The notes under the pieces are model-generated. The model searched no databases, was not told where the DNA came from, and saw nothing but the letters and a program-made list of their open reading frames with translations. A stretch of 59,966 bases of DNA from a virus (lineage: Duplodnaviria > Caudoviricetes), in the IMG/VR virus record IMGVR_UViG_3300020476_000002, positions 1 through 59,966 of that record; one strand, 5' to 3'. Shown here piece after piece: positions 1,800-57,220 of this stretch (positions are counted from its first letter, which is position 1; the number at the start of each line of letters is the position of its first letter). The position numbers and the translations under genes are program-made.

Positions 1800-4700
1800 G
1801 TGGGACTGTGGAACTTTATTTACAAAATCAGCAAAGGTGCTTTTAACACTGGTGTCCAAAGTGTTGACTTTGTTACCGACATCGCACAGGAAGCGTTACC
1901 GGGTCGCGACGAATACGAAGGCAGCGGGATAGCTGACACCATTTGGGGATCATTCAACGACAATGTTCTTGGCGAAGGTGGGGTGATGCAGTCCGCTATC
2001 GGACCTGAAGGTGTTGGGGGCACCATCATTGGAGCAATATCTCCCGCAGTACGCAAACCGATAAAAAGTGTGATCGACCCCACTTTTAAGGCTGCCACTA
2101 TTGCCTATAAACACGCGATAGATCGTCCTTTGGGGACGCTTATGACGATTGCTTCTGTTGCTGACAGTTCCGGTGAAGGCACACACAATGAGTACGAATT
2201 TGAAGGTGGATTAAGTAACTGGCTTAACACTGAAACGTGGGCGCATGCTTGGGATATTTCAAACAGTCAATCTCTCGGCCAAGCCTTGTCGCTTGCTGTT
2301 GGAACGAAAGACATTCTCGACAAAGACGAAGTAGACAAGTGGGAGGGCACGTCTATGCACCGTTTGGCGTCGGGGACCACAGACGCATTGTTTACTATTA
2401 TTTACGATCCGTTCTACCAAATAGGTGTCCCCACTAAAGTTTTTGCTCCCGTAATTGGTGACGTTGCGCGACATCATCGTAGGGTGGCTGGTGCAGGAAC
2501 GCATGTCACCGAAAGCGCCGGGTTTGCGCGTTTAACGAAAGACATTGCTGCTATCGCTGATGAAATGGTTGAGGGTCGCACCGCAGCAGCGTCAGGTGCG
2601 GGCCGCACTCTGGCAGCAGGGTTGCGTGCCAGCGCAGACGAAGCCAAAAAGACTCTCCAAAAAGGTGTCGATGAGACTGGTCAAAAATTAGATGGTGCCG
2701 CCAAAGACGAGCTTCAGGGAATAATCGATGAAGCAGATCGTTTAGAGGACTTGGCATCCGCTCCCCTTGGATTCAGCGAAGGCTATTACAAGGGGCTACC
2801 CACACCTGACGACCTAACTCTTATAGACGAGTTAGCGACAAAAGTCCACCAAAAACACAAGCATATAAAGGGTTTCACCCCGGATGTTGCTTACGCTGTA
2901 GCCGCTGCCCCAACACTCGAAGCGCAACAACTGGTGTTTCGTTTAGCGATGGGAAATGCTGAAGCGTTGCAGCAAGTCAGAAACTTGGCTGACGAATGGG
3001 CTGGTTTGATGCAACAAGGTGGCCTTGTGGATCGCATGGTCACTATCCAAAAGCAAATAGATAGCCTGACTGACAGCATCGCTTCGCCTGGGTTGCAACA
3101 AAAGTTGAGAGCAAACCTGAACAGGCAAGTCATGGCTTTAGAAAAAGAAGCCGCTGATCTGTTAAGAGGGATGCCCCAAGGTCTTACCGGTTTAGGCGTT
3201 TTTAACGCTGCTTTCTCAATTAAGGGTCAACGCTTGGCTGCGTTGGCTCCTCGTTTCGCTGATGAAGTAAGCGTTGACGCTGTTGATGCTGCGTGGGGAG
3301 CATTAAACGACTCTCCCCGTCTGGTTTCTGGTGTTGCCGATGAAATCCTTGGACCAATCCTGGCGGAAACAGCGAGTAGCAACCGACTGGTCGTGGGGTC
3401 TTTAAGGGAAGCACCCAAGATAGGTATTGTAAGACATTTGGGGTACGGGGCCGCATCCTTTATGAGCGAAGTGCCAATGCTGGGGCCAGCCGGGTTGCGG
3501 GTGGTCAATGTGTTTCGAGAAAAAACTGCCCAGCAGATGATGATTTGGGATGACGTTGACCAAACCTTCAACCAGTTTGAACGCATGTTGCGTGACGCAA
3601 GTCGAGTCACCCACAAAGGCAGATCTCTTGTAGAAGAAGCCGGTGTCAATGTTGACGAAGTGTTAGGTAACTGGGTTAAATCTTCACAGCATCAACGTAA
3701 GGCCATGTTTGAAAACATTGTTGATGACTTGAATGATGGTGTCATAAAACTTTATGCAGATGAACTTCTTGAGGGTATCGACGCAGACACTTTGAAATCC
3801 CAGCCTTTGAGTCCTAAACGAATGAGGAAAGCGTTGGATGAAGCGGAAGGAGTCTTGCGAGGGCAAGCCGAAAACGCAAGAGTGTATGGCAACCGGGATC
3901 TCCAATTTGATTTAGCTGACACCGATTTCAATATCACTCGACGCTACATAGAAAACTTGACCCCCCAACAGCTTCGCCAAGCGTCACTTGTTCCCCGGTA
4001 TGACGCAATCGCCACAGTGATGAAACACAGCGCTATCCGCAAATTCATGGGGCGAGGCGCTGAATTCGGTGACGAGTTTATGATGGCATGGAAAAAGTCT
4101 GTGCTGCTGCGTCCGGCGTGGCCGATTCGTGTTCTTTCTGACGAACTGTTACGTTCGGCTGCTGCGCTTGGCGGTATGCACACTATGAGGGGAACATTCG
4201 CAGGTTTCAATGATCTTCGTACCGCCTGGTTCAAAAAGAATGGTGAAGATGTGATGGCCCCTGTCATCGCCAAGATGCGGGACGATCTGAAAGTCGGGGA
4301 CGAACTATCTGACGGGGACTTGTATCTCCAGTATGAAGCAAAGCACGGCGCTAAAGCGACAGAAAAGTTGACACGCAACGCCATCAACGACGCTTACGGC
4401 AGGGACCGTATCCGCAGAAGGGGACTCTTTACCACCGGTGTGGGGTTGTTTGCATTAGGCCCAGGTGGGGCGTTGGCTTCCGCAGCTCTTTACAGTTTGT
4501 ATGCTCGACGCACAATGTCTTCTTTGGCTCGCCGGGAAGTTGCTGCACGGTTTTATAGTGAGGTTCGAGGGGTAGCTAAGAAACAATTTGATGAAGCTGA
4601 AGCGGCGATAAGGCAGTCAGTGAAAGAGGGGGTGAGGACTCCTGAAGAAGCCGCCAGGTTGCTTAACAATTTGAAGCATCGGAAAGATCTTGCGGAAACG

Positions 4701-7313
4701 CAAGCTCGTACCCTTAAACAGCAGTTAGAGCATTCTGTTCTTAGAACTCCGAAACGTAAAGACGCAGATCTTACAGAGAAATACGATTTGCCTGAGGAAT
4801 ACTCAGAGATGATTACCAACTTTGATCGAGTTGGTGAACTGATGCACCAAGCCCGTGTCGGCGGATATTACATGGGGGGCTACCAGTTTGCGAACGAGTT
4901 TGGGGACACTCCTTTCGCTGTTCAAATGAACAAGCAAGCATTGTCGTCTAGCCGGTCTACTCGTGGCGCATATGAAACAGTGGGGAGTGCCACAAAAAGA
5001 AACTATGAAAGTCAGATAGTCGGAGGGGAATATCGGCTTCACAAGTTTGACCAAAACAGGAAAGCCTTTGTTGAGGCGTATGACCGCACGGTCAATTACC
5101 AGTTCAAACCGCATTTGCTTGACGACACAATGCCCCAAGAGTTCCAAATGTTTACTCAAATGTTTTGGCAAGGCAGAAGCGATGCTGAAATAATTGCGTG
5201 GCTGAAAACTCGGCAGGGTTCCAAACTCGAAGAAGCCATGCCCCGCCATTTCGGTAAAGAACAAAACATAGAGCAATGGGTAAACGCTGTTCGCACACAA
5301 ATAGACAACTATGTTCCCAACACCCCAGAGTTTGCTTTAGTGCGACAGAAATTGGCTGAAGGTAAAGACATCAGTTGGGTCAACGACATTGTTCCCATCT
5401 TGAACAAGAACTACGGCGGAGTGAATGCTGGTGTCAAAGCAATACACCAGTTAGAAGGTGGTAGATACGCTGAGTTTGGGATAGTCCACGGGGCAAGCGG
5501 GGCAATAGCCGACGCTGTAATAACGAGACAACTTATCCAACGAGCAACCAAACAGATAGATAGCTGGATGGAGTCCCTCGGAACGATGACTGTGGACAAC
5601 CTGTCACGCAGCACCGTGTTCTCAGGGGTTTACCGAAACGAACTTGCCCGGTTAGTGCAAACGTACAGAAGGAGCGACGGCACTTATCGCATAACTGACG
5701 TACAACTGAAAAGCATTGAGAACGCTGCTCGGCGTGTCGCACTTGATGAGACTCGCAAATTGCTTTACGACCTGGCGGAACGCACCCGTTTCGGAGAAAT
5801 GGTCGGAATGCTCATGCCGTTCTACAGCGCATGGCAAGAAGTCATCACCCGCTGGGCCGGACTCGCCGTACAAAACCCCGTGTTCGTGGCGAGGGGTGCC
5901 CGATATTTTCAAGCCATCAAAGGCGAAGACGAAGAAGGCAACTCCAATTTCGTGATCCGTATGCCAGAAGGTCTGCTTGGAGCCGAAATAGCGGGACAAC
6001 CGGTGTTCGGGAAACTCGGCACCCTCGGGTTTACTTCCCTGAAACTGCATCCCGACTCGATTTCAATGATCTCTGCGGGACTACCAGGGTTCGGTCCCAT
6101 CGTCACAATAGCGGCAAGTGAATCTGTTATCGCACAGCCCTCCCTGCAAGAATCTATGGATTGGTTGCTTCCTTACGGCGCATCGGAGGGCACAGGTGTT
6201 TTCCATCGCATGTGGCAGCAGGTTGAGCCGACGTTTCTGCGTCGTATGGAAGGCGCATATTTCGACGTACCGGAACGCCAAAAAATGTTGGCCCAAGTAG
6301 CCATTGACTTGGCAGCAGAATATGAAGGGTTAGGCGAGAAAATCAACACCCCTGAGTTAGAGAAAGAGTTTGTTGACGAAGCGATCCGCCGCACCGAAGA
6401 CATCTTAAAGATTCGGGCACTCGCCGGGTTGGGTGTCCCGTTCGCTTTCCAAGTCCAGTCCCCATATCACGCAGTCATAGAGGACTACCGAAAAGTCACC
6501 GAGGAAGACGGGTTTGATGCTGCAACCACTTGGCTGCTAGCTAATCACCCAGAGTTGTGGGCAATTACGGCTCGACGGACAATGGTGCAAGGTGTTGCGT
6601 CCGCCACATTGGAAGGTGACGCAAAGTATCGGGAACACAAAGACTTCGCTGACGCTCACCCAGAAATAGGGGACTTCATTATCGGCAAGATCGGTGCCGA
6701 CGATGTGCAGTTTGAGTTCAACTATGCGGTCTACAAATCTGAGATAGCCGAAGGTCGTCGGGTGCGTGCCACCCCCCAAGAGATTCTGCGGAAACCACAA
6801 GAGAACAAGGGGTGGGCTGAGTGGCGTGAAGCGAAGAACCTTGTGTATGAGGAACTGGCACGTCGCGAACAAGCGGGTGGTTCAGCCAGTTTGGGGGCGA
6901 AAGCCAACAACGATTTACAGATGCTTATGGATCGAGTGAAGTTGAAAGTAGCTCAGGATAATCCTGGGTGGTGGGAAGCGTACAACGAAACGTATGACCA
7001 GCTTCATCAGGCCAAAGTTATGGACGGTTTCCGTGCTTTGATTAAGTCTGAAGACTTCCAGTATCGCCCCGAAATTCCGTTACTTGACGAGTATTTTGAG
7101 GCTCGTGAACTCATTGAAAAAGAATTAGAACGTCGAGGTAATGCTAGCGGCGAAGCAGATGCGTATTCTTTAGGGTATCGCACTAACGCAGACCTCGAAC
7201 AGTTGTGGGATGCTATAAGGGTGAAGTTGCGTAACAACAATGACTTTATAGAAATCTTTGACCGGTATTTCGAGAATGACACGATTGACAAAAAGACATG
7301 GGTAAGCAGGTAA
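1800..7313 (+). CDS. large internal virion / DNA-ejection-type protein (A, 1837 aa)
   Basis: Long ORF after the portal. Conserved blocks shared with 38365..47112 (IDRPLG, LYDLAER, AWQEV, DVQFE, EDFxYRPEIP). Function inferred from size and position. Confidence 0.65.
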   Translation: MGLWNFIYKISKGAFNTGVQSVDFVTDIAQEALPGRDEYEGSGIADTIWGSFNDNVLGEGGVMQSAIGPEGVGGTIIGAISPAVRKPIKSVIDPTFKAATIAYKHAIDRPLGTLMTIASVADSSGEGTHNEYEFEGGLSNWLNTETWAHAWDISNSQSLGQALSLAVGTKDILDKDEVDKWEGTSMHRLASGTTDALFTIIYDPFYQIGVPTKVFAPVIGDVARHHRRVAGAGTHVTESAGFARLTKDIAAIADEMVEGRTAAASGAGRTLAAGLRASADEAKKTLQKGVDETGQKLDGAAKDELQGIIDEADRLEDLASAPLGFSEGYYKGLPTPDDLTLIDELATKVHQKHKHIKGFTPDVAYAVAAAPTLEAQQLVFRLAMGNAEALQQVRNLADEWAGLMQQGGLVDRMVTIQKQIDSLTDSIASPGLQQKLRANLNRQVMALEKEAADLLRGMPQGLTGLGVFNAAFSIKGQRLAALAPRFADEVSVDAVDAAWGALNDSPRLVSGVADEILGPILAETASSNRLVVGSLREAPKIGIVRHLGYGAASFMSEVPMLGPAGLRVVNVFREKTAQQMMIWDDVDQTFNQFERMLRDASRVTHKGRSLVEEAGVNVDEVLGNWVKSSQHQRKAMFENIVDDLNDGVIKLYADELLEGIDADTLKSQPLSPKRMRKALDEAEGVLRGQAENARVYGNRDLQFDLADTDFNITRRYIENLTPQQLRQASLVPRYDAIATVMKHSAIRKFMGRGAEFGDEFMMAWKKSVLLRPAWPIRVLSDELLRSAAALGGMHTMRGTFAGFNDLRTAWFKKNGEDVMAPVIAKMRDDLKVGDELSDGDLYLQYEAKHGAKATEKLTRNAINDAYGRDRIRRRGLFTTGVGLFALGPGGALASAALYSLYARRTMSSLARREVAARFYSEVRGVAKKQFDEAEAAIRQSVKEGVRTPEEAARLLNNLKHRKDLAETQARTLKQQLEHSVLRTPKRKDADLTEKYDLPEEYSEMITNFDRVGELMHQARVGGYYMGGYQFANEFGDTPFAVQMNKQALSSSRSTRGAYETVGSATKRNYESQIVGGEYRLHKFDQNRKAFVEAYDRTVNYQFKPHLLDDTMPQEFQMFTQMFWQGRSDAEIIAWLKTRQGSKLEEAMPRHFGKEQNIEQWVNAVRTQIDNYVPNTPEFALVRQKLAEGKDISWVNDIVPILNKNYGGVNAGVKAIHQLEGGRYAEFGIVHGASGAIADAVITRQLIQRATKQIDSWMESLGTMTVDNLSRSTVFSGVYRNELARLVQTYRRSDGTYRITDVQLKSIENAARRVALDETRKLLYDLAERTRFGEMVGMLMPFYSAWQEVITRWAGLAVQNPVFVARGARYFQAIKGEDEEGNSNFVIRMPEGLLGAEIAGQPVFGKLGTLGFTSLKLHPDSISMISAGLPGFGPIVTIAASESVIAQPSLQESMDWLLPYGASEGTGVFHRMWQQVEPTFLRRMEGAYFDVPERQKMLAQVAIDLAAEYEGLGEKINTPELEKEFVDEAIRRTEDILKIRALAGLGVPFAFQVQSPYHAVIEDYRKVTEEDGFDAATTWLLANHPELWAITARRTMVQGVASATLEGDAKYREHKDFADAHPEIGDFIIGKIGADDVQFEFNYAVYKSEIAEGRRVRATPQEILRKPQENKGWAEWREAKNLVYEELARREQAGGSASLGAKANNDLQMLMDRVKLKVAQDNPGWWEAYNETYDQLHQAKVMDGFRALIKSEDFQYRPEIPLLDEYFEARELIEKELERRGNASGEADAYSLGYRTNADLEQLWDAIRVKLRNNNDFIEIFDRYFENDTIDKKTWVSR

Positions 7314-26341: not shown

Positions 26342-26575
26342 TCATTGGTCCATCAAATCCTTTATCATGCTGTCAAGATCACCTTCAACATGTGTCAACA
26401 ACTCATGCACTTCGTGAAGACGACCCTTTAAGATTGTTAGGGGAACGTGAAGATACAGTTCACCCTCGACTTGCTCCTCCGTATACTCTTTCTCTAACTC
26501 ATCACGCCGAGCTTGAAGGTACGCCATAATATTTTCAGCAGTAATCAAATCGTGATTACCAATTGTCTTATTCAC
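26342..26575 (-). CDS. hypothetical protein
   Basis: GTGA overlap with the upstream gene. Confidence 0.55.
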   Translation of the reverse strand: MNKTIGNHDLITAENIMAYLQARRDELEKEYTEEQVEGELYLHVPLTILKGRLHEVHELLTHVEGDLDSMIKDLMDQ

Positions 26576-27582
26576 GACTGCTCTCCTACCAAAATCTTGG
26601 CAGCCTTCTCAGTCATCGGTAACTTCCCGAACATCACATTGGCATCATGCCTACGGGCACGTTCCATGCTGCTATTCACACCCTTAACTGATTTATCTTT
26701 CTGCTCCCATGCTTGAACAGCCATGAGTGCACCCCACTTGGTGTTACGCACACTAGCTATATCCTCGTCACGACGGAATCTGTGATTCAAGTCTGATTTC
26801 ACGTTACGCCAACGAGTTAACTGATTGTAATAGCCCTGATGTGATTGAGTATTGCTTCTCCACCACGGCTCTTCAGGTCCACTACCAATGAGATTGATAA
26901 CTAATCCATCCCATTGTTCATCAACGAACTCTTCGTTAGCCATACGTTCAATCTGTTGCTTGTATGTTTCATGTCTTTCATAGCTATCACACAATGCTTG
27001 AACAGCTTCTTGCATCATGCCTTGGGGATCACCCATCTTCTTAAACTTGAAGATAGCGTTCTTATCCAAGATGTTTAGCTTGAAAGTATTCGCACACACA
27101 ACAGCCCGTGCAGACTGAGTAGCAATTAACGGAATACTTTTGTCATGTCCGTTACCAATGTTGAACATCGATTCAACTCTTGACCAACCGGGAATTTCTA
27201 TATCTTCCTTGAACTTCAGAGACACATAACCAACAGCACCATGATCATAGGTACCAACTGATTCGATAGCCTCTACCAGTCCAGTATCGATAAGCAATCC
27301 AGTTAATTCATCAGCCATAAACCGATGTTGAACTATTCGGTATCGATTACTTACTTCAGCATGAGCATATGGATAGTTGACCATCTTTAAGACCTGTCGA
27401 TCCGAAAGTAATTCAGCTACTCCATGATGCTCAATGAGTATCGGTGTACGTTCAACCTCAGACCAGTCAAAGGCTTCACGAGCTTTCTCCCAATCAATAG
27501 GTCCAACGGTACCCATTCCATGCCAAGCAGCCTTACGATATAAGGCATGTTCAGCATCTAATTTTGTCATCCTATGTGACAT
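26572..27582 (-). CDS. DUF932 / LGT_TIGR03299-like phage-plasmid protein
   Basis: AWHGMG, NGHD, VVCANT and TKWGALMAV motifs. Confidence 0.8.
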   Translation of the reverse strand: MSHRMTKLDAEHALYRKAAWHGMGTVGPIDWEKAREAFDWSEVERTPILIEHHGVAELLSDRQVLKMVNYPYAHAEVSNRYRIVQHRFMADELTGLLIDTGLVEAIESVGTYDHGAVGYVSLKFKEDIEIPGWSRVESMFNIGNGHDKSIPLIATQSARAVVCANTFKLNILDKNAIFKFKKMGDPQGMMQEAVQALCDSYERHETYKQQIERMANEEFVDEQWDGLVINLIGSGPEEPWWRSNTQSHQGYYNQLTRWRNVKSDLNHRFRRDEDIASVRNTKWGALMAVQAWEQKDKSVKGVNSSMERARRHDANVMFGKLPMTEKAAKILVGEQS

Positions 27583-27963: not shown

Positions 27964-27994
27964 TAAATACCAAACCCCTTCGGGCTTGTATTTA
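27964..27994 (-). terminator. hairpin downstream of the pentamer array
   Basis: AAATAC-AAGCCC-GAAG-GGGTTT-G-GTATTT followed by ATTG. Confidence 0.5.
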
Positions 27995-28029: not shown

Positions 28030-28235
28030 GTCACCATAACAGGCTGACCTTGGCCCTGAGCACCAATACGATACGTTGCTGCCTAGACTTTCCGGTGCTG
28101 CCACTGAGTGACACTCCCCACCACGCCCAAGCTGGGCATTCCGCGACACTCCCCACCTTTCCGGTGCTGCCATGACGCTGCCTACCGCAGGAGACCCTAG
28201 CTTTCCGCACTATGCCCAAGCCCGCCCTTCCGTGT
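28030..28235 (-). ncRNA. phased GGH-NN pentamer array, candidate guide-RNA array
   Basis: 32 of 36 in-register pentamers start with G, 19 with GG, and none has G at position 3. A 16-nt direct repeat TGGCAGCACCGGAAAG recurs at 69-nt spacing. Confidence 0.7.
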
Positions 28236-28243
28236 CCTATATT

Positions 28244-28687
28244 TTATAACTCGTCTATAGCTAGACGCACATTCTCAAACTCATCGAATGCGGTTACTCG
28301 ATCACTCAAATTACGGAACCGAGTCTTATACATTGCAACAACCTGAGCACGCTGATCCGTGTCATTCATTGCAACCTCGACAGATACATACCCTTTTTCT
28401 TTTACGGGCTGCACCATCGCAGGAATTTTTACTTTCTTTATCCCATTACTAGGATGATCGTAAGTAACAGTAATTTTATAGTTAGCAATCAACGCACGAG
28501 CTTGCTGCAACCTGTACTTATCTGCTGCTGATGTATTATCCCAATCAAAATGCTTATGTAACACATGCTTAGGATCACGAGCAACTTCAACCACTGTCTC
28601 TGGTTGAACCGTCCCATACGTTGATTCAATATCTTCTAAAGCTATAAGAGTTTCAGAAGGATTCGTTTTAACTATCGAATGTTCCAT
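28244..28687 (-). CDS. partner of the Cas7-like gene, unknown function
   Basis: LHKHFDWDNTSAADKYRLQQARALI motif. Starts 1 nt after the RAMP-like stop. Confidence 0.7.
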   Translation of the reverse strand: MEHSIVKTNPSETLIALEDIESTYGTVQPETVVEVARDPKHVLHKHFDWDNTSAADKYRLQQARALIANYKITVTYDHPSNGIKKVKIPAMVQPVKEKGYVSVEVAMNDTDQRAQVVAMYKTRFRNLSDRVTAFDEFENVRLAIDEL

Positions 28688-29380
28688 TTATATTTCCTCA
28701 TATTTCGCTGGATCTAATGTGAATTGACCATACATACCAGTGTTCGACTGCGGTGAAGCTGGCCTCCATTCACCAACACCTCCCATACCTGCTGCTTCAA
28801 CAAGAGTATGGATACCTTCGAAATCAATTTGTGTAGGAATATATCTGACAGTCAATGTCGCTGACCATTCAGGATATGTAGCTCTCCATCGCAGATCAGC
28901 AGTTCCTTGCCCAACCCGAACAACATCTTCTCTACTTTCAGGCACCCCAATGATAGGTACAAGCTGATTCTGACCGAAGCCTTCAACGTAAAGCGCCGTT
29001 CTTAAACCGACCAACGTCACTTCCTTACCAAACAAACGGGAAGCACCAACAATCGCAGCCTTGAATCCAACAGCAGGGAAACCATCAGTTACCCCACTGG
29101 CCTTCTGAATATCGTCATCCAAAATATATCGAGAATCATTAAACGATTTCTCTGGATTACGAGGTGGTTTCTTTGTCTTAACACCCGGTGTTGTCATTAA
29201 CGCAGCCTTATTAGCAAACCGATTAACAATCAAAGGCGTAACACCTTTAATATAAATATCAACCGACGCCCGAGTAATCTTTTTCAAGCTCATCGCAGGC
29301 AATTCATGCTCAATAACAACTGGCTCAGGTTGTTTCACCTCAACTATTTTTTTCGTTGAAGTTGCTTTCTTTGTAGCCAT
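28688..29380 (-). CDS. solo Cas7/RAMP-like protein
   Basis: IKGVTPLIV first strand, FPAVGFKAAI helix, C-terminal Gly loop GMGGVGEWRP..GMYGQF; AGGAG RBS. Confidence 0.7.
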   Translation of the reverse strand: MATKKATSTKKIVEVKQPEPVVIEHELPAMSLKKITRASVDIYIKGVTPLIVNRFANKAALMTTPGVKTKKPPRNPEKSFNDSRYILDDDIQKASGVTDGFPAVGFKAAIVGASRLFGKEVTLVGLRTALYVEGFGQNQLVPIIGVPESREDVVRVGQGTADLRWRATYPEWSATLTVRYIPTQIDFEGIHTLVEAAGMGGVGEWRPASPQSNTGMYGQFTLDPAKYEEI

Positions 29381-29452
29381 AACTTTCTCCTTTATTTCAT
29401 TTAAGATCTATAAACGTCGCACCATTATTGGATACAACAACAAGCTAAAGAC

Positions 29453-29553
29453 GGGTGTCGATACCGGTTTGTGGTAGATCGAACGTGTCTACCTAGCAGA
29501 TCTCTATGAGTGCTGGTCGCTTTAATCACTCAGCAAATCCAGTATCGAATCCC
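29453..29553 (-). ncRNA. tRNA-like cloverleaf (non-canonical)
   Basis: Long closing stem, D-arm-like GCTGAGTGATTAAAGC, CTCATAG-containing loop, T-arm-like GGTAGA-CACGTTCGA-TCTACC. Confidence 0.4.
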
Positions 29554-29605
29554 AAGGAACCACACCAGTCTGGAAGGTGACTGATGTGGAACCTTTGGAC
29601 TCGAC

Positions 29606-30214
29606 CTAGGCGTAAAGCCCTTCTGAACGGTCGATTACCAATGCGTTCGTAGACATGTTCTCTACGGTACGGTTAATGTGTGCATCCAAGAGAACGCTTG
29701 CCTTGTTTTCACGCAACGCAATCTCTGTAGCCTTCTGATTTTCAAGACGTGAGAATGCCATCAACTCCCAATTCACCATCGGGCGACCAACATTACCACC
29801 ACGTGAGTAGTACTGAAGATCTGACGTAACGATGTCACCAATAGCGTTCTCAACTCGACGCCATGCTTCAACGTTGCTGTGATCTCGAACCCAAACTGTG
29901 TGATCCCACACGCCCTTCGCAGTCTCAGTCTTACCAACTGGGAACAGGACGATGCGATACTCAATAGACTCTGGGTTACGAACCTCAATGCCATTCTCTT
30001 TGCATGTCTCAATGTATTCTTTAGACACGGCCTTATCGTTAGCCCTGAACCACGTAGGTAGTGCAGTACTATCGTTGTAAGATGCGCTGAACTCTTGGAT
30101 CAGAGTGTCTGCGAGCACCATGTCACGCCAACCATCAGTCATCAATCCAAGATTGGATTCACGAACGAAGTTAACTATGTCGTTGCCGAGTAGCTCGGCT
30201 TTAGTTGCAGCCAT
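29606..30214 (-). CDS. hypothetical protein
   Basis: 202 aa with GAGG RBS. Confidence 0.7.
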   Translation of the reverse strand: MAATKAELLGNDIVNFVRESNLGLMTDGWRDMVLADTLIQEFSASYNDSTALPTWFRANDKAVSKEYIETCKENGIEVRNPESIEYRIVLFPVGKTETAKGVWDHTVWVRDHSNVEAWRRVENAIGDIVTSDLQYYSRGGNVGRPMVNWELMAFSRLENQKATEIALRENKASVLLDAHINRTVENMSTNALVIDRSEGLYA

Positions 30215-30346
30215 TACTGGCCTCTCTTTCTTTGTTTAAGCGACGTATCGCAGCAATATTTGCTAAGCCACGTCGCACTGTTTCTGGATCTAATCGCCAG
30301 ATTTGTTGTTTGTAGACCTCACGGACTACACGATCTCGTCTCGGCA

Positions 30347-30564
30347 TCAGAAGTGGCTCCCGTGTAGGGAGCAAGCGGCTTCGTCTTCCTCGGTGATTGG
30401 CAGGTCGTTCTCTAGGCAGCGCCGCAGCTTGTAGCAGGTGCAGTCAAGCTGGTAGGCGAAGCCGCTCTCTTCTTCTGAGCGGTAGCTTTGGGGGTCGCCC
30501 CAAACTGTGATCCAGAAGAGTTCTTCTGTTCTGGTAGCGAGCCGCTGTAGGTCGCGGCTTATGC
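30347..30564 (-). CDS. -1-frame extension of the 30807 gene (frameshift product or indel-split gene)
   Basis: Protein-like frame with no start of its own. Slippery C_CCA_AAA plus a hairpin at the junction. Confidence 0.4.
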
Positions 30565-30807
30565 TTTTGGGTCTGCGTCCAAGTCTCGGTAAACGATCGT
30601 GGTCTTGATCGAGCCGTAGTGAACGTTGTTTTCGTAGTTTGGAGTGTCGCCGTAGCTCTCGCGGAGCTTCCTTTGCAGTTCCGCAGTTTTCTTGCGGCCA
30701 CTCTCGTCGCATTTTGTGATGCGGGCCTTCCATGAGACCTGAAGTTCGGAAAATCCCTTCAGTTCAATCCATTCGGCCCATTCGGTCCGAAGCATTTTGG
30801 TTCTCAT
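30559..30807 (-). CDS. 82-aa hypothetical protein, first gene of the leftward arm
   Basis: Strong AGAAAGGAGG RBS before the ATG at 30807. Confidence 0.7.
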   Translation of the reverse strand: MRTKMLRTEWAEWIELKGFSELQVSWKARITKCDESGRKKTAELQRKLRESYGDTPNYENNVHYGSIKTTIVYRDLDADPKA

Positions 30808-30840
30808 GTGGTCCCTCCTTTCTCGTTGACAAGAGGTGGA

Positions 30841-31003
30841 TAACATGAGCCAGAGCCTTTAGGCCGAAGCCGGAAACCAACCGTGGGGAAGAAAGTTTCC
30901 AAAAATTCATGCGTTTGGGACAACCCGAATACTTGGAGGGTTGGCCCGAAATTTTGGAAAGTTTCAGGGGTCCCCCGGTTTGTTTTCGGGATGGCTCATG
31001 TTA
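30841..31003. repeat. long imperfect inverted repeat (rod-like structure)
   Basis: TAACATGAGCCA / TGGCTCATGTTA outer stem plus three nested stems. Confidence 0.75.
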
Positions 31004-31904
31004 AGCGAACGCTAACGCAAGCGAGGTTTCCCGAGGCTTCAGCCGACAGGAAACCCGGTGAAGTCGAGAGCGTGCTGGCTCTGGGCAACGAGATGGAGGG
31101 GCCACGAAGAACAAATGCGAGGCCAGAATGGGACAATGGATCAGAACGGGAGGGACCGGACTCAGGCCGAATGGAAGGCCACGCTACAAAATGTGACGGT
31201 GGCCCAAGAAAACCGCGAGAACAGCAAGCACAGCCTGCCTTGTCCTCGTACACAGAGCCGGCGACTCCAAACCGAAACAACGCACACGGAACGACGACCA
31301 TGATCGCCGAGACTAGCGACGCAGCACAAAGCAAAGCCGAACCTTCTGGATCACAGTCAGGGCTACCGCTACTTGGGCCACGGCACAAAGACGGCGTGAC
31401 CGGCACAACACCAAACAACAAACAAGACGTGTATGTCTGGCTGGGTGTGTGTGGGGGGGTGTGGTGTGTGGTCTTAGGCCCCTCGCCTCGTGTAGCAGGC
31501 GCACGAGCGAAGCGAGGCGATGTCTGCGACAGCAGGCAGCGCTACCCCCGAAGAATGAGGGGGGCGCCTGCGGTTGTTTGTACTGCAGATCAGTAGACGG
31601 TAAGGGGTGATGTGCCGAGACACCCGTCTTTACATAGATGATTATCGGTGTTTTGGTGTGTTTGGTTCAGTTGTTGTGCTGTGGGTGGTTTTGTCCTTGG
31701 TGTCCTCCGAGTGTTGGGGCCTCTCTTGCCTTGACCTAGCCTCGCTGTGCTGGTCGCTCTATGCCCCCCTGTGGTGTGGGCCGTCGTGTCTGGACATAGA
31801 GTCAGATGCCCCTCTGACGGGCGATCGGACCGGTGTTAGCGGCGAGTGCATTTGTACTGTATCATGTCGGGACGGGGGATCGAACCTATTTTGGAGATAA
31901 TGTA

Positions 31905-32342
31905 ATGGCAAAACTAGATAGAAGAAGTCCTAGCGCAGGTCCGGGTGATAATCGGCCACGTGGTGACGACGTAGTAGAGATTCCGGGGGATACTAATTAT
32001 CTTTTTGCGCTTTTCCCTCATCCAGCGACAGAAACTCGTACAGAACGTAGTGAACGGTTGTATGGGACTACGCTGCGACATGAAAACACTGGGCCTTACC
32101 GAAGTTCAGATCCCGGTCACTTTTATCAGGAAGGCCCCGGTAGGGGTAAGGGGAAGATAGTGAGTTCCACTAGTTCTCCGGCTGGCAAGTTTTCTATGCG
32201 TCACAAGTATCAGGCAAAAATCCAAAACGAGTTACGGGAAACGTATGGGGCGAGAGATTCGATTGGTGGGTCTTTACGGAAAAGTGGGCATGGAGTACAC
32301 GAAGGTGATGTGTCCATGAATAATCCACCCGAGTACAGGTAA
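31905..32342 (+). CDS. hypothetical protein
   Basis: ATG at 31905 after GGAG; first gene of the rightward arm. Confidence 0.6.
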   Translation: MAKLDRRSPSAGPGDNRPRGDDVVEIPGDTNYLFALFPHPATETRTERSERLYGTTLRHENTGPYRSSDPGHFYQEGPGRGKGKIVSSTSSPAGKFSMRHKYQAKIQNELRETYGARDSIGGSLRKSGHGVHEGDVSMNNPPEYR

Positions 32343-32346
32343 GATT

Positions 32347-32640
32347 ATGGCTAGAGGAAGAAAAGCACCTTCTCCATATAAACTCCCTCAGGGGAGTGAT
32401 TACGAGGTCTTCGATCTTGAATTCCTTATGTATGGGAATCAGGCTTTGGCTAAAGGCCATTCTTTGAGTGGTATCGCAGCGCATAATAAACGGCTTGCCG
32501 AGCAAGGTTTTACCCGTGGGGTTAACGCTGCTGATGTTTCTATGAATAATGCTCCTCACCCGAGGGTAGATACTCCTGTGAGTAGAGGGAGAGGATCGAA
32601 GAAAAGGGCAACAAAAAATACGAAAGGTAAAAGACCCTAA
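32347..32640 (+). CDS. basic hypothetical protein
   Basis: 97 aa, tightly packed. Shares DVSMNNxP with the upstream protein. Confidence 0.6.
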   Translation: MARGRKAPSPYKLPQGSDYEVFDLEFLMYGNQALAKGHSLSGIAAHNKRLAEQGFTRGVNAADVSMNNAPHPRVDTPVSRGRGSKKRATKNTKGKRP

Positions 32641-56353: not shown

Positions 56354-57220
56354 GTGGCAACGCAATATCGTCAATCAGGAGTTGTATATAGGGCATCGGG
56401 CGTCGCTTATGGGACGCCTACAACTATTACCCCTGCCACCATTGCGGCCACAGCAACCATCCCCACCGATTTCGAGTTTGAGTATCGCCAAACTGGGCAA
56501 GCGTACCGAAACAGTTACGACTATCGTCAAGCCCTAATTTCAGGCAACGTCTATCTGGTTGTTGCTACCCCGGCCACGGTCGCTGCCACCACTTCGATCA
56601 CGGCGACCGGTGGAATACCGATCACGGTATCTGTTTCAACTATTGCTGGTGTAGCAGCGTTACCTGGCCCCAGTGTAACAGCCAACTATGTAGACGTTGA
56701 AGAAGTAGACCTTAGCGCTGTAGCAGCGTTACCTGCCCCCACGATTCTGACTGGGGCGTTAATGACTCCAGCCACGATTGCTGGGGTCGCAGCGTTACCC
56801 GCCCCCACCCCCGAAGTCGAGGTGATCGCCAACCATGTCAGTGGCACCGGCGCTGTCCCAGAGCCGACACGGGAATGGCATGTCCTCCCAGGCACTATTA
56901 CTTGCACCACCACGATGGGTGAAGAACAGGTTTACACGCTCCTCGAAATGCCGTTCACAATGACCCTTCCCCCTGTCGGTTTACGGCAGGACGCTACCCC
57001 TGCGGCGTATGCGTTACGACGCCACTACGCCCAGGAGAAGAAGGGAACGAACCTGATAATTGTCAACGGCACTTCCATTCAGACGTTCCCTCCAGCGGAC
57101 TGGTCAACTGTGACAAGATGGATATATGGGGGACATGCGTCCCCGAAGGACTTAACGTCCTCTGAAATAGCGTTGTTGATTGCTAACGGATATTCGATTG
57201 ATGTTGGAGCTGGAGCCTAA
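56354..57220 (+). CDS. virion structural protein with YRQSG and PATI repeats
   Basis: Homologue of 17265..18131. Confidence 0.6.
   Translation: MATQYRQSGVVYRASGVAYGTPTTITPATIAATATIPTDFEFEYRQTGQAYRNSYDYRQALISGNVYLVVATPATVAATTSITATGGIPITVSVSTIAGVAALPGPSVTANYVDVEEVDLSAVAALPAPTILTGALMTPATIAGVAALPAPTPEVEVIANHVSGTGAVPEPTREWHVLPGTITCTTTMGEEQVYTLLEMPFTMTLPPVGLRQDATPAAYALRRHYAQEKKGTNLIIVNGTSIQTFPPADWSTVTRWIYGGHASPKDLTSSEIALLIANGYSIDVGAGA

Follow-up and report, generated by a model that had tools for sequence, protein, structure and literature searches.

The locus at positions 28,030 to 29,380 of the IMG/VR virus record IMGVR_UViG_3300020476_000002 combines two genes with a non-coding tract of five-nucleotide repeats, all on the minus strand. 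The window analysed here is the whole record, 59,966 nt long with a completeness estimate of 96%. The original prediction proposed an RNA-guided system distinct from CRISPR at this site, and the locus is considered here as a candidate VIPR (Viral Interference Programmable Repeat) system. Such systems comprise a Vipr RAMP protein, usually one vap gene (10.64898/2026.04.26.720920), and repeat RNAs called vrRNAs. The features of the locus, under these names, are as follows.

28688..29380, minus strand: vipr, encoding a minimal RAMP protein of 230 aa
28244..28687, minus strand: vap-like accessory gene, 147 aa, with its ATG directly after the vipr stop codon
28171..28240, minus strand: vrRNA unit 1, 14 pentamers in 70 nt; invariant G in 12 of 14, position 3 never G
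28102..28171, minus strand: vrRNA unit 2, 14 pentamers; invariant G in 13 of 14, opening with the junction GGCAG-CACCG-G
28083..28102, minus strand: unit 3, 4 pentamers, consisting of the junction GGCAG-CACCG-GAAAG plus one more; invariant G in all 4
28034..28083, minus strand: vrRNA unit 4, 10 pentamers; invariant G in 8 of 10, opening with GGCAG-CAACG
27971..27988, minus strand: terminator-like stem-loop with a T-rich tail, 7 pairs including 4 G-C; a consensus match

The two minus-strand open reading frames (ORFs) of 230 and 147 aa are as first described, except that the proposed gap of 1 nt is in fact 0 nt, the vipr stop codon abutting the vap ATG. The non-coding tract, expected within about 10 nt of the gene pair, begins 3 nt past the stop codon of the 147-aa gene on the same strand. 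Beyond it lies the anticipated hairpin, the stem-loop at 27988..27971. With 1 site observed against 1.2 expected in shuffled sequence, this element stands as a consensus match only, and it is likely the 3' end of a transcript that spans vipr, vap and the array.

Fourier analysis shows that guanines on the minus strand of 28100..28243 recur every five nucleotides. The period-5 power is 2.66, compared with at most 0.38 at eleven other periods, and none of 20,000 shuffles reaches it. Two adjacent phases contain G in 19 and 20 of 29 pentamers, versus 7-8 in the other three. Across the whole 59,966 nt and both strands, the nine best 150-nt segments all start at 28081-28161 (2.24-2.97), while the best elsewhere scores 1.66; the tract at 28240..28034 has the strongest 5-nt G periodicity of the 60-kb phage. 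As a positive control, the same measure applied to phage SUSP1 (NC_028808.2) places the published vrRNA arrays at the top, with 4.36 against a background maximum of 1.22. The RNA of the tract folds no better than shuffled versions (z-score -0.68), which is what a protein-bound repeat is expected to do.

The five-nucleotide period of the original prediction thus stands, whereas its single strict phase does not. Read with the near-invariant G last, the tract divides into four abutting units of 14, 14, 4 and 10 pentamers. Units 2 to 4 each open with GGCAG followed by a CxxCG-like pentamer, and each shares its opening G with the final G of the preceding unit, a 1-nt overlap. Because this guanine is shared, units are spaced 5k-1 nt apart, and the register shifts by -1 nt at every GGCAG junction (28171, 28102 and 28083). 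Unit 3 is probably a truncated remnant, since its 4 pentamers fall short of the 9-16 repeats reported for vrRNAs. In unit 1, the guide dinucleotides at positions 4-5 run AG AC AG GG TG AT GC AA AG CT GC AG GC AT. Contigs of one metagenome run break inside the array at 28092-28128, between two copies of the GGCAGCACCGGAAAG junction, so short-read assembly may often fragment such arrays.

A sequence logo defines the repeat more closely. It covers 215 pentamers from 21 units of the window and three close relatives, with the first two pentamers of each unit excluded. Position 1 is G in 191 of the 215 (89%) and position 2 in 110 (51%), while position 3 is G in only 4 and otherwise A (59), C (75) or T (77), making it not-G in 98%. 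Position 4 is variable and C-poor, and position 5 is uniform. In units 1-2, a single pentamer of 28 has G at position 3, and it lies within the GGCAG junction. A degenerate GGH repeat, as originally proposed, is therefore a fair description for position 3, which avoids G, and less so for the second G, present in about half of the pentamers.

This array departs from the canonical scaffold of an invariant GG followed by a pyrimidine at position 3. Membership in VIPR is compatible with such a departure, since the preprints admit related consensus patterns. Published vrRNAs consist of 9-16 YNNGG repeats, and the Methods of the same preprint name the variants NNNGG, YNNNG and NNNNG (10.64898/2026.04.26.720920). 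A further preprint describes 99 period-5 clusters, 21 of them with non-canonical pentamers beside Vipr-like folds, and gives the pentamers GAC/NN, CAC/NN, WGT/NN and TGH/NN (10.64898/2026.10.21.760802). The array here shares with these the 5-nt period, a fixed part plus two variable bases, and an adjacent Vipr-like fold. Its logo of a strong G, a half-present G and a not-G fits none of the patterns named there exactly, the nearest being a weakened GGY. An array in these terms is at least four tandem pentamers of YNNGG or a related pattern beside vipr, and the tract holds 14, 14, 4 and 10. Departures from GGY are already published, so the degenerate repeat of this array defines no new class.

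The 230-aa protein contains all four quoted motifs, IKGVTPLIV, FPAVGFKAAI, GMGGVGEWRP and GMYGQF. Its AlphaFold model has a predicted local distance difference test score (pLDDT) of 87.4 and a predicted template modelling score (pTM) of 0.80. A Lys-rich N-terminus (residues 1-36) of low confidence precedes an RRM core that starts at the strand 38-46. Helix 1 spans residues 103-116 (FPAVGFKAAIVGASRLF), the thumb hairpin covers 148-169 and includes R166, and the G-loop occupies 198-207 (GMGGVGEWRP). Foldseek returns 38 matches at E <= 0.001, with Csm3 chains at the top (E 9.3e-5), which bears out the RAMP fold originally proposed. No Pfam family matches the protein, which is placed in PHROG 4652, a group of unknown function. 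Its family is large, with 830 clusters at 90% identity and E <= 0.001 (among 1,191 candidates) and 2,277 representatives at 50% identity and E <= 0.001.

Profile comparison assigns the protein more precisely. A profile built from 43 family members, searched against PDB sequences at E values up to 1, finds a single match, 36pp_D, the 'SUSP1 Vipr protein' (E 3.1e-8). The hhalign comparison of this profile (A1) with SUSP1 gp039 gives a Prob of 97.0 and an E value of 9.2e-11 over 59 columns across the thumb and G-loop. Here R166, W205 and R206 are identical to SUSP1 R138, W178 and R179, while E204 stands for D177 and G200 for C173. Within the 43 sequences, R166, W205 and R206 are invariant, and E204 and G200 are at least 90% conserved. 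In the SUSP1 structure, H17 and D177 hold G1, R138 and W178 hold G2, and the Y3 pocket includes R179 and C173 (10.64898/2026.04.26.720927). The guanine-holding residues R138, D177, W178 and R179 thus align to R166, E204, W205 and R206, and the glycine at 200, in place of Cys173 of the pyrimidine pocket, may be the cause of the tolerated A at position 3. The protein is homologous to the Vipr of SUSP1, whose structure is solved, and has a Csm3/Cas7-like RAMP fold; it is a Vipr rather than a Cas7 protein as first named.

The 147-aa partner, which belongs to PHROG 15946 (function unknown), carries the conserved motif LHxxF(E/D)WDDxxAAxxYRLxQARxLI. A word-based search recovers three close homologues, and jackhmmer extends this to 69 of 75 loci; the homologue shares the strand of vipr in every case and usually follows it directly. 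Its model, with a pLDDT of 87.3, weakly suggests a winged-helix-like region at residues ~6-108. The partner has no Pfam match, no PDB sequence match and no Foldseek match at E <= 0.001, and an Atlas search returns only unnamed viral clusters plus one auto-named DUF4494, unconfirmed. It shows no similarity to SUSP1 Vap1 (Prob 0.3). The accessory gene usual in VIPR systems is present and abuts vipr, but it is not homologous to vap1. The published scheme defines seven VIPR types and vap1-6; all six vap families apparently interact with DNA, and for those of types II, VI and VII binding to DNA is predicted (10.64898/2026.04.26.720920).

Close relatives in marine metagenomes reproduce the same build. 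Three of them reach the array (L073, L075 and L076), with protein identities of 87-97%, and a fourth, L074, ends before it. Each of the three has 5-6 units with the same junction, and unit spacings in the close relatives are 69, 69, 59, 59, 64, 49 and 74 nt, with a spacing of 78 nt and ill-defined first units as exceptions. Guide letters are shared as well: 27 of 28 in unit 1 are the same in L073, unit 2 has homologous units in L073 and L075, and unit 4 opens with the same 8 guide dinucleotides in the window and all three relatives. The blastn identity over 28083..28044 is 87-90%.

A wider comparison covers 74 related loci: 69 from IMG/VR, the phages Mattes and ODay, and L073, L075 and L076. 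Duplicated loci are kept in this count, and L074 is excluded for its short downstream flank. Scored as positive when a 100-nt segment reaches a period-5 G power of at least 3.0, 62 of the 74 have a tract on the vipr strand, 51 downstream and 11 upstream, which agrees with the expectation that homologues have adjacent periodic tracts. These tracts lie 31-1519 nt from vipr and never inside the gene, and the opposite strand has one in only 2 of 74. Three of the 12 loci below 3.0 (L015, L050 and L051) are nearly devoid of flanking sequence on one side. The three-part layout of a Vipr homologue, an accessory gene and a same-strand non-coding pentamer array recurs through the family.

The -1 register step recurs with it. 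Between successive in-phase blocks, 391 of 672 steps are -1; the remainder are +1 (111), -2 (112), 0 (42) and +2 (16). The +1 and -2 steps are mostly paired, summing to -1, and arise from detection of both G positions. The staggered build is thus the rule in this Vipr clade. Some loci show 6-10 consecutive -1 steps (L004, L010, L033 and L061), and in L024 the array extends over ~1.6 kb (4116-5728). The first VIPR preprint names 'staggered arrays with overlapping vrRNAs', an architecture absent from those it presents as confirmed by small-RNA sequencing (10.64898/2026.04.26.720920). The legend of its fig. S18 gives such arrays a vrRNA overlap of 1 nt, and here unit lengths are multiples of 5 nt and each unit end serves as the next start; judged from that legend, they would be the same class, with the -1 step as its rule in this clade.

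Cultured phages also encode the gene pair. A tblastn search against 50,697 phage records finds 33, from 27 Mycobacterium phages, 5 Gordonia phages and 1 cyanophage, and the gene is annotated as hypothetical in all 30 rows among the matches listed. Mycobacterium phage Mattes (NC_051681.1; L001, 2074-3549) carries the vipr-vap pair as gp52/gp53, and Gordonia phage ODay (MW534375.1; L002, 2501-3766) as gp19/gp20, each annotated as hypothetical. The strong period-5 array of Mattes lies in the gap upstream of gp52 (power 5.13) and that of ODay between gp19 and gp20 (4.78). In Mattes the locus is part of the immunity region and has repressor, Rha-like and excisionase genes as neighbours. The clade, including its mycobacteriophage members, may already be classified in the published VIPR figures or supplement.

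Taken as a whole, the locus is very probably a phage-borne VIPR system, a new example of a kind first described in 2026. The phage 'VIPR' systems with GGY/NN RNAs that the original prediction cited are indeed in print: their vrRNAs are alternating GGY/NN pentamers, each bound by one protomer, and act in inter-phage conflict (10.64898/2026.04.26.720920, 10.64898/2026.04.26.720927). The NN letters read double-stranded DNA with one base skipped per unit, and natural targets are satellites and prophages (10.64898/2026.04.26.720920). A later preprint describes guide calling and scoring and reports that SUSP1 depends on vipr together with vap1 against its satellite (10.64898/2026.10.15.759431).

The closest characterized system is the type II VIPR of SUSP1 (vipr gp039, vap1 gp038, four vrRNAs; PDB 36pp). 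Both have a small single-RRM RAMP protein with a thumb and a G-loop, in which the guanine-contact Arg, Trp and Arg are identical and the SUSP1 Asp becomes Glu. Both form a two-gene minus-strand operon (195 and 146 aa in SUSP1, 230 and 147 aa here) with same-strand pentamer arrays beside the genes, and both are phage-encoded without cas genes. Several distinctions separate them. Detectable similarity is limited to the C-terminal 59 aligned columns, at 31% identity, and the repeat is G-(G)-H-N-N rather than GGY-NN. Unlike the SUSP1 vrRNAs, each of which has a leader and a hairpin or pseudoknot tail, the units here abut with a 1-nt overlap at GGCAG. The accessory protein is unrelated in sequence, the phage is marine, and the upstream vrRNA of SUSP1 has no counterpart in 29381-29605.

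Compared with the Csm3, Cmr4 and Cas7 proteins of CRISPR types III and VII (e.g. 6xn3_F and 6ifn_E), the protein shares the RAMP fold of the backbone subunit. Identity is only 11-16%, and the repeat step is 5 nt here, not 6. The genome also lacks the rest of a CRISPR system: it has neither an array of 25-40-nt CRISPR repeats with spacers nor cas1/2/5/6, and nothing in it matches Pfam RAMPs. The Pfam families Cas1, Cas2, Cas6_C, Cas5d, DevR and RAMPs give 0 matches in the whole phage record, whereas each of these models matched 2-7 of 14 control genomes, and no CRISPR-like repeat array was found in the window, as the original prediction had stated. Three copies of a 23-nt repeat do occur at 56650-56807, with spacings of 69 and 66 nt; since both spacings are multiples of 3, they probably encode a repeated stretch of protein rather than forming a CRISPR-like array. 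The target also differs, since the published VIPR target is double-stranded DNA read discontinuously.

By analogy with SUSP1, a working mechanism can be outlined. The operon would be transcribed through the array, and one Vipr protomer would bind each pentamer. The thumb and G-loop (R166, E204, W205 and R206) would hold G-(G)-H and leave the two variable bases free. The units of 14, 14 and 10 pentamers could then read 41, 41 and 29 bp of double-stranded DNA in the pattern NN-x-NN-x, and the filament would block transcription of a rival phage, satellite or prophage, with the winged-helix-like partner assisting at the DNA. On this analogy, the array units most likely guide the protein to rival DNA. 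The -1 register break at GGCAG may, as our own addition to the SUSP1 scheme, mark the end of one filament and the start of the next.

A number of observations weigh against this interpretation. The repeat is weaker than canonical GGY, with its second G in about half of the pentamers, and the best 100-nt power here, 2.93, falls just below the 3.0 threshold used on the relatives, although it is 1.6x the highest background value in the window (1.79). The repeat tracts end without the invariant structured tail of SUSP1. Residue N53, which is H in most of the family, pairs with SUSP1 H17 only via a non-significant stretch of the alignment. Between close relatives, scaffold and guide letters change at rates that do not differ significantly (56/258 vs 28/172, Fisher p 0.17). 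None of the runs listed as containing the locus is an RNA run. DNA silencing is demonstrated, in the published VIPR work available, only for type II, and the locus here is not assigned to a type. Finally, scans of local loci, IMG/VR and genome contigs yield no target.

These scans joined positions 4-5 of each pentamer by one free base. Large collections were scanned for exact runs of 8-10 units only, a design that misses targets with scattered mismatches. Locally, with 5 registers and 4 skip lengths tried across the window and related loci, non-self matches reach at most 21-22 of 28 letters, and a skip of 3 recovers only the array itself. In a 1.7-Mb scan, units 2 and 4 perform at the level of shuffled guides (19 vs a maximum of 20, and 16 vs a maximum of 17). 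Exact scanning of IMG/VR gives 0 and 0 matches for pentamers 3-12 of units 1 and 2, 0 and 0 for pentamers 4-12, and 0 for the unit 2 variant that L073 and L075 have in common.

Two candidate sites from these scans were rejected. A genome-contig match to pentamers 4-13 of unit 1, in a Terracidiphilus metagenome-assembled genome, agrees in only 2 of 8 flanking letters, and an estimated ~1 chance match is expected in 596 Gb. Seeds of 8 pentamers from unit 1 hit 20 and 19 stretches, of which the best extends to 23 of 28 letters, in L101, L113 and L115, which are 96-100% identical and count as one phage. With 39 seeds, about 0.5 extensions of that quality are expected. The site falls within a small ORF, where its free base occupies codon position 2, not the wobble position, and was dismissed as chance.

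Variation among natural strains bears on whether the array is maintained. The stretch is found in 20 runs listed, from 12 studies, all marine or seawater metagenomes, and eight of these runs are possibly the source sample. Full-length contigs of two other runs show 14 differences over 1501 nt, none of them in 28034..28243, and the nearest to the array are at 28033 and 28028. About 2 differences would be expected in the array by rate, and their absence is only consistent with constraint.

Among the other explanations, one keeps the locus within the VIPR family and gives it a different output. The ribonucleoprotein could bind or cleave RNA in the manner of type III Csm3 filaments, or tune the phage's own genes. 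This is unlikely: the guanine-contact residues of the DNA-binding SUSP1 Vipr are retained, and the best self-match in the phage genome, at 19 of 28 guide letters, does no better than shuffled guides. The apparent DNA interaction of all six published vap families (10.64898/2026.04.26.720920) argues against it as well.

A second explanation accepts the genes as real and regards the array as a decaying or decoy remnant, which would load no Vipr productively or soak up the Vipr of a competitor. The half-present second G and the 4-pentamer unit 3 would suit such a remnant, as would a period-5 power below that of SUSP1 (2.93 vs 4.36), and satellites and phages are reported to have decoy and solo vrRNAs (10.64898/2026.10.15.759431). 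Several observations speak against it. The same degenerate logo holds across 21 units of four phages, position 3 avoids G in 211 of 215 pentamers, unit lengths remain multiples of 5, and neither vipr nor vap is disrupted. Phages with ~12% protein divergence still share guide letters of units 1 and 4, and strains that vary at other sites of the locus have an unaltered array. Decay or decoy function is very improbable here.

It is scarcely credible that the periodicity is chance or a DNA-level feature unrelated to the neighbouring genes, such as a curved or G-rich element or a short ORF, for although two mechanical ORFs (56 and 62 aa) run across the tract, no shuffle reaches the signal, relatives differ by unit-sized steps of 5k-1 nt and not by codons, and the tract accompanies vipr on the same strand throughout most related loci.

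Beyond the VIPR locus itself, the genome setting adds a few features. The 225-nt intergenic region upstream, 29381-29605, contains no period-5 tract, tRNA or Rfam match, or sigma-70-like site, and blastn homology to L073 and L074 ends 13-29 nt upstream of the vipr start codon. ARAGORN and Rfam give no match anywhere in the window, including any tRNA-like element upstream of vipr. Downstream of the locus, after a 112-aa ORF, the minus strand encodes a 336-aa DUF932 protein at 26572-27582 (Pfam E 1.2e-21; PHROG 1221). On the other side, a region of ~2 kb at 30200-32350 has a G+C fraction of 0.53-0.59, compared with 0.485 overall, and contains only overlapping low-complexity mechanical ORFs on both strands, with no convincing gene.

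A possible second array near 31.1-31.4 kb was also considered and rejected. The period-5 power there is 1.3 on either strand, and the GGCAG junction is absent. A strict caller finds one other run against 2.9 expected, and a relaxed caller proposes a 2-segment array at 31352..31253, but it reports 10 such arrays in all, against 11.4 in shuffles. The weak period-5 G signals near 31131-31360 on both strands are not distinguishable from chance.

A more specific proposal for this clade is tentative and, on balance, doubtful. It holds that the guides are not individual tailed RNAs but parts of one continuous transcript, in which the -1 frame break at GGCAG may by itself end one Vipr filament and seed the next. 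Several independent guide filaments would then assemble on a single RNA, with no enzyme needed to process it. Owing to the Gly in place of SUSP1 Cys173, reading of the scaffold would depend mostly on one guanine, and the partner would represent a new winged-helix-like Vap family needed at the DNA. If true, the single-transcript -1 build would be a distinct multi-guide form of VIPR, known in print only as a prediction, and an abundant marine phage would carry it.

VIPR, reported in 2026, offers a minimal way of finding DNA through a discontinuous RNA code and is a possible forerunner of CRISPR. The locus described here is a natural example with clear limits, carried by a marine phage, for which the unit boundaries are given exactly and the guide letters and repeat logo are defined. 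Its clade differs from the studied SUSP1 type in its degenerate scaffold, its abutting units with a -1 step and its different accessory protein, and the clade-wide prevalence of that step gives the staggered architecture a concrete, testable rule. The same gene pair occurs in lab-cultivable Mycobacterium and Gordonia phages, which opens a direct route to experiments.

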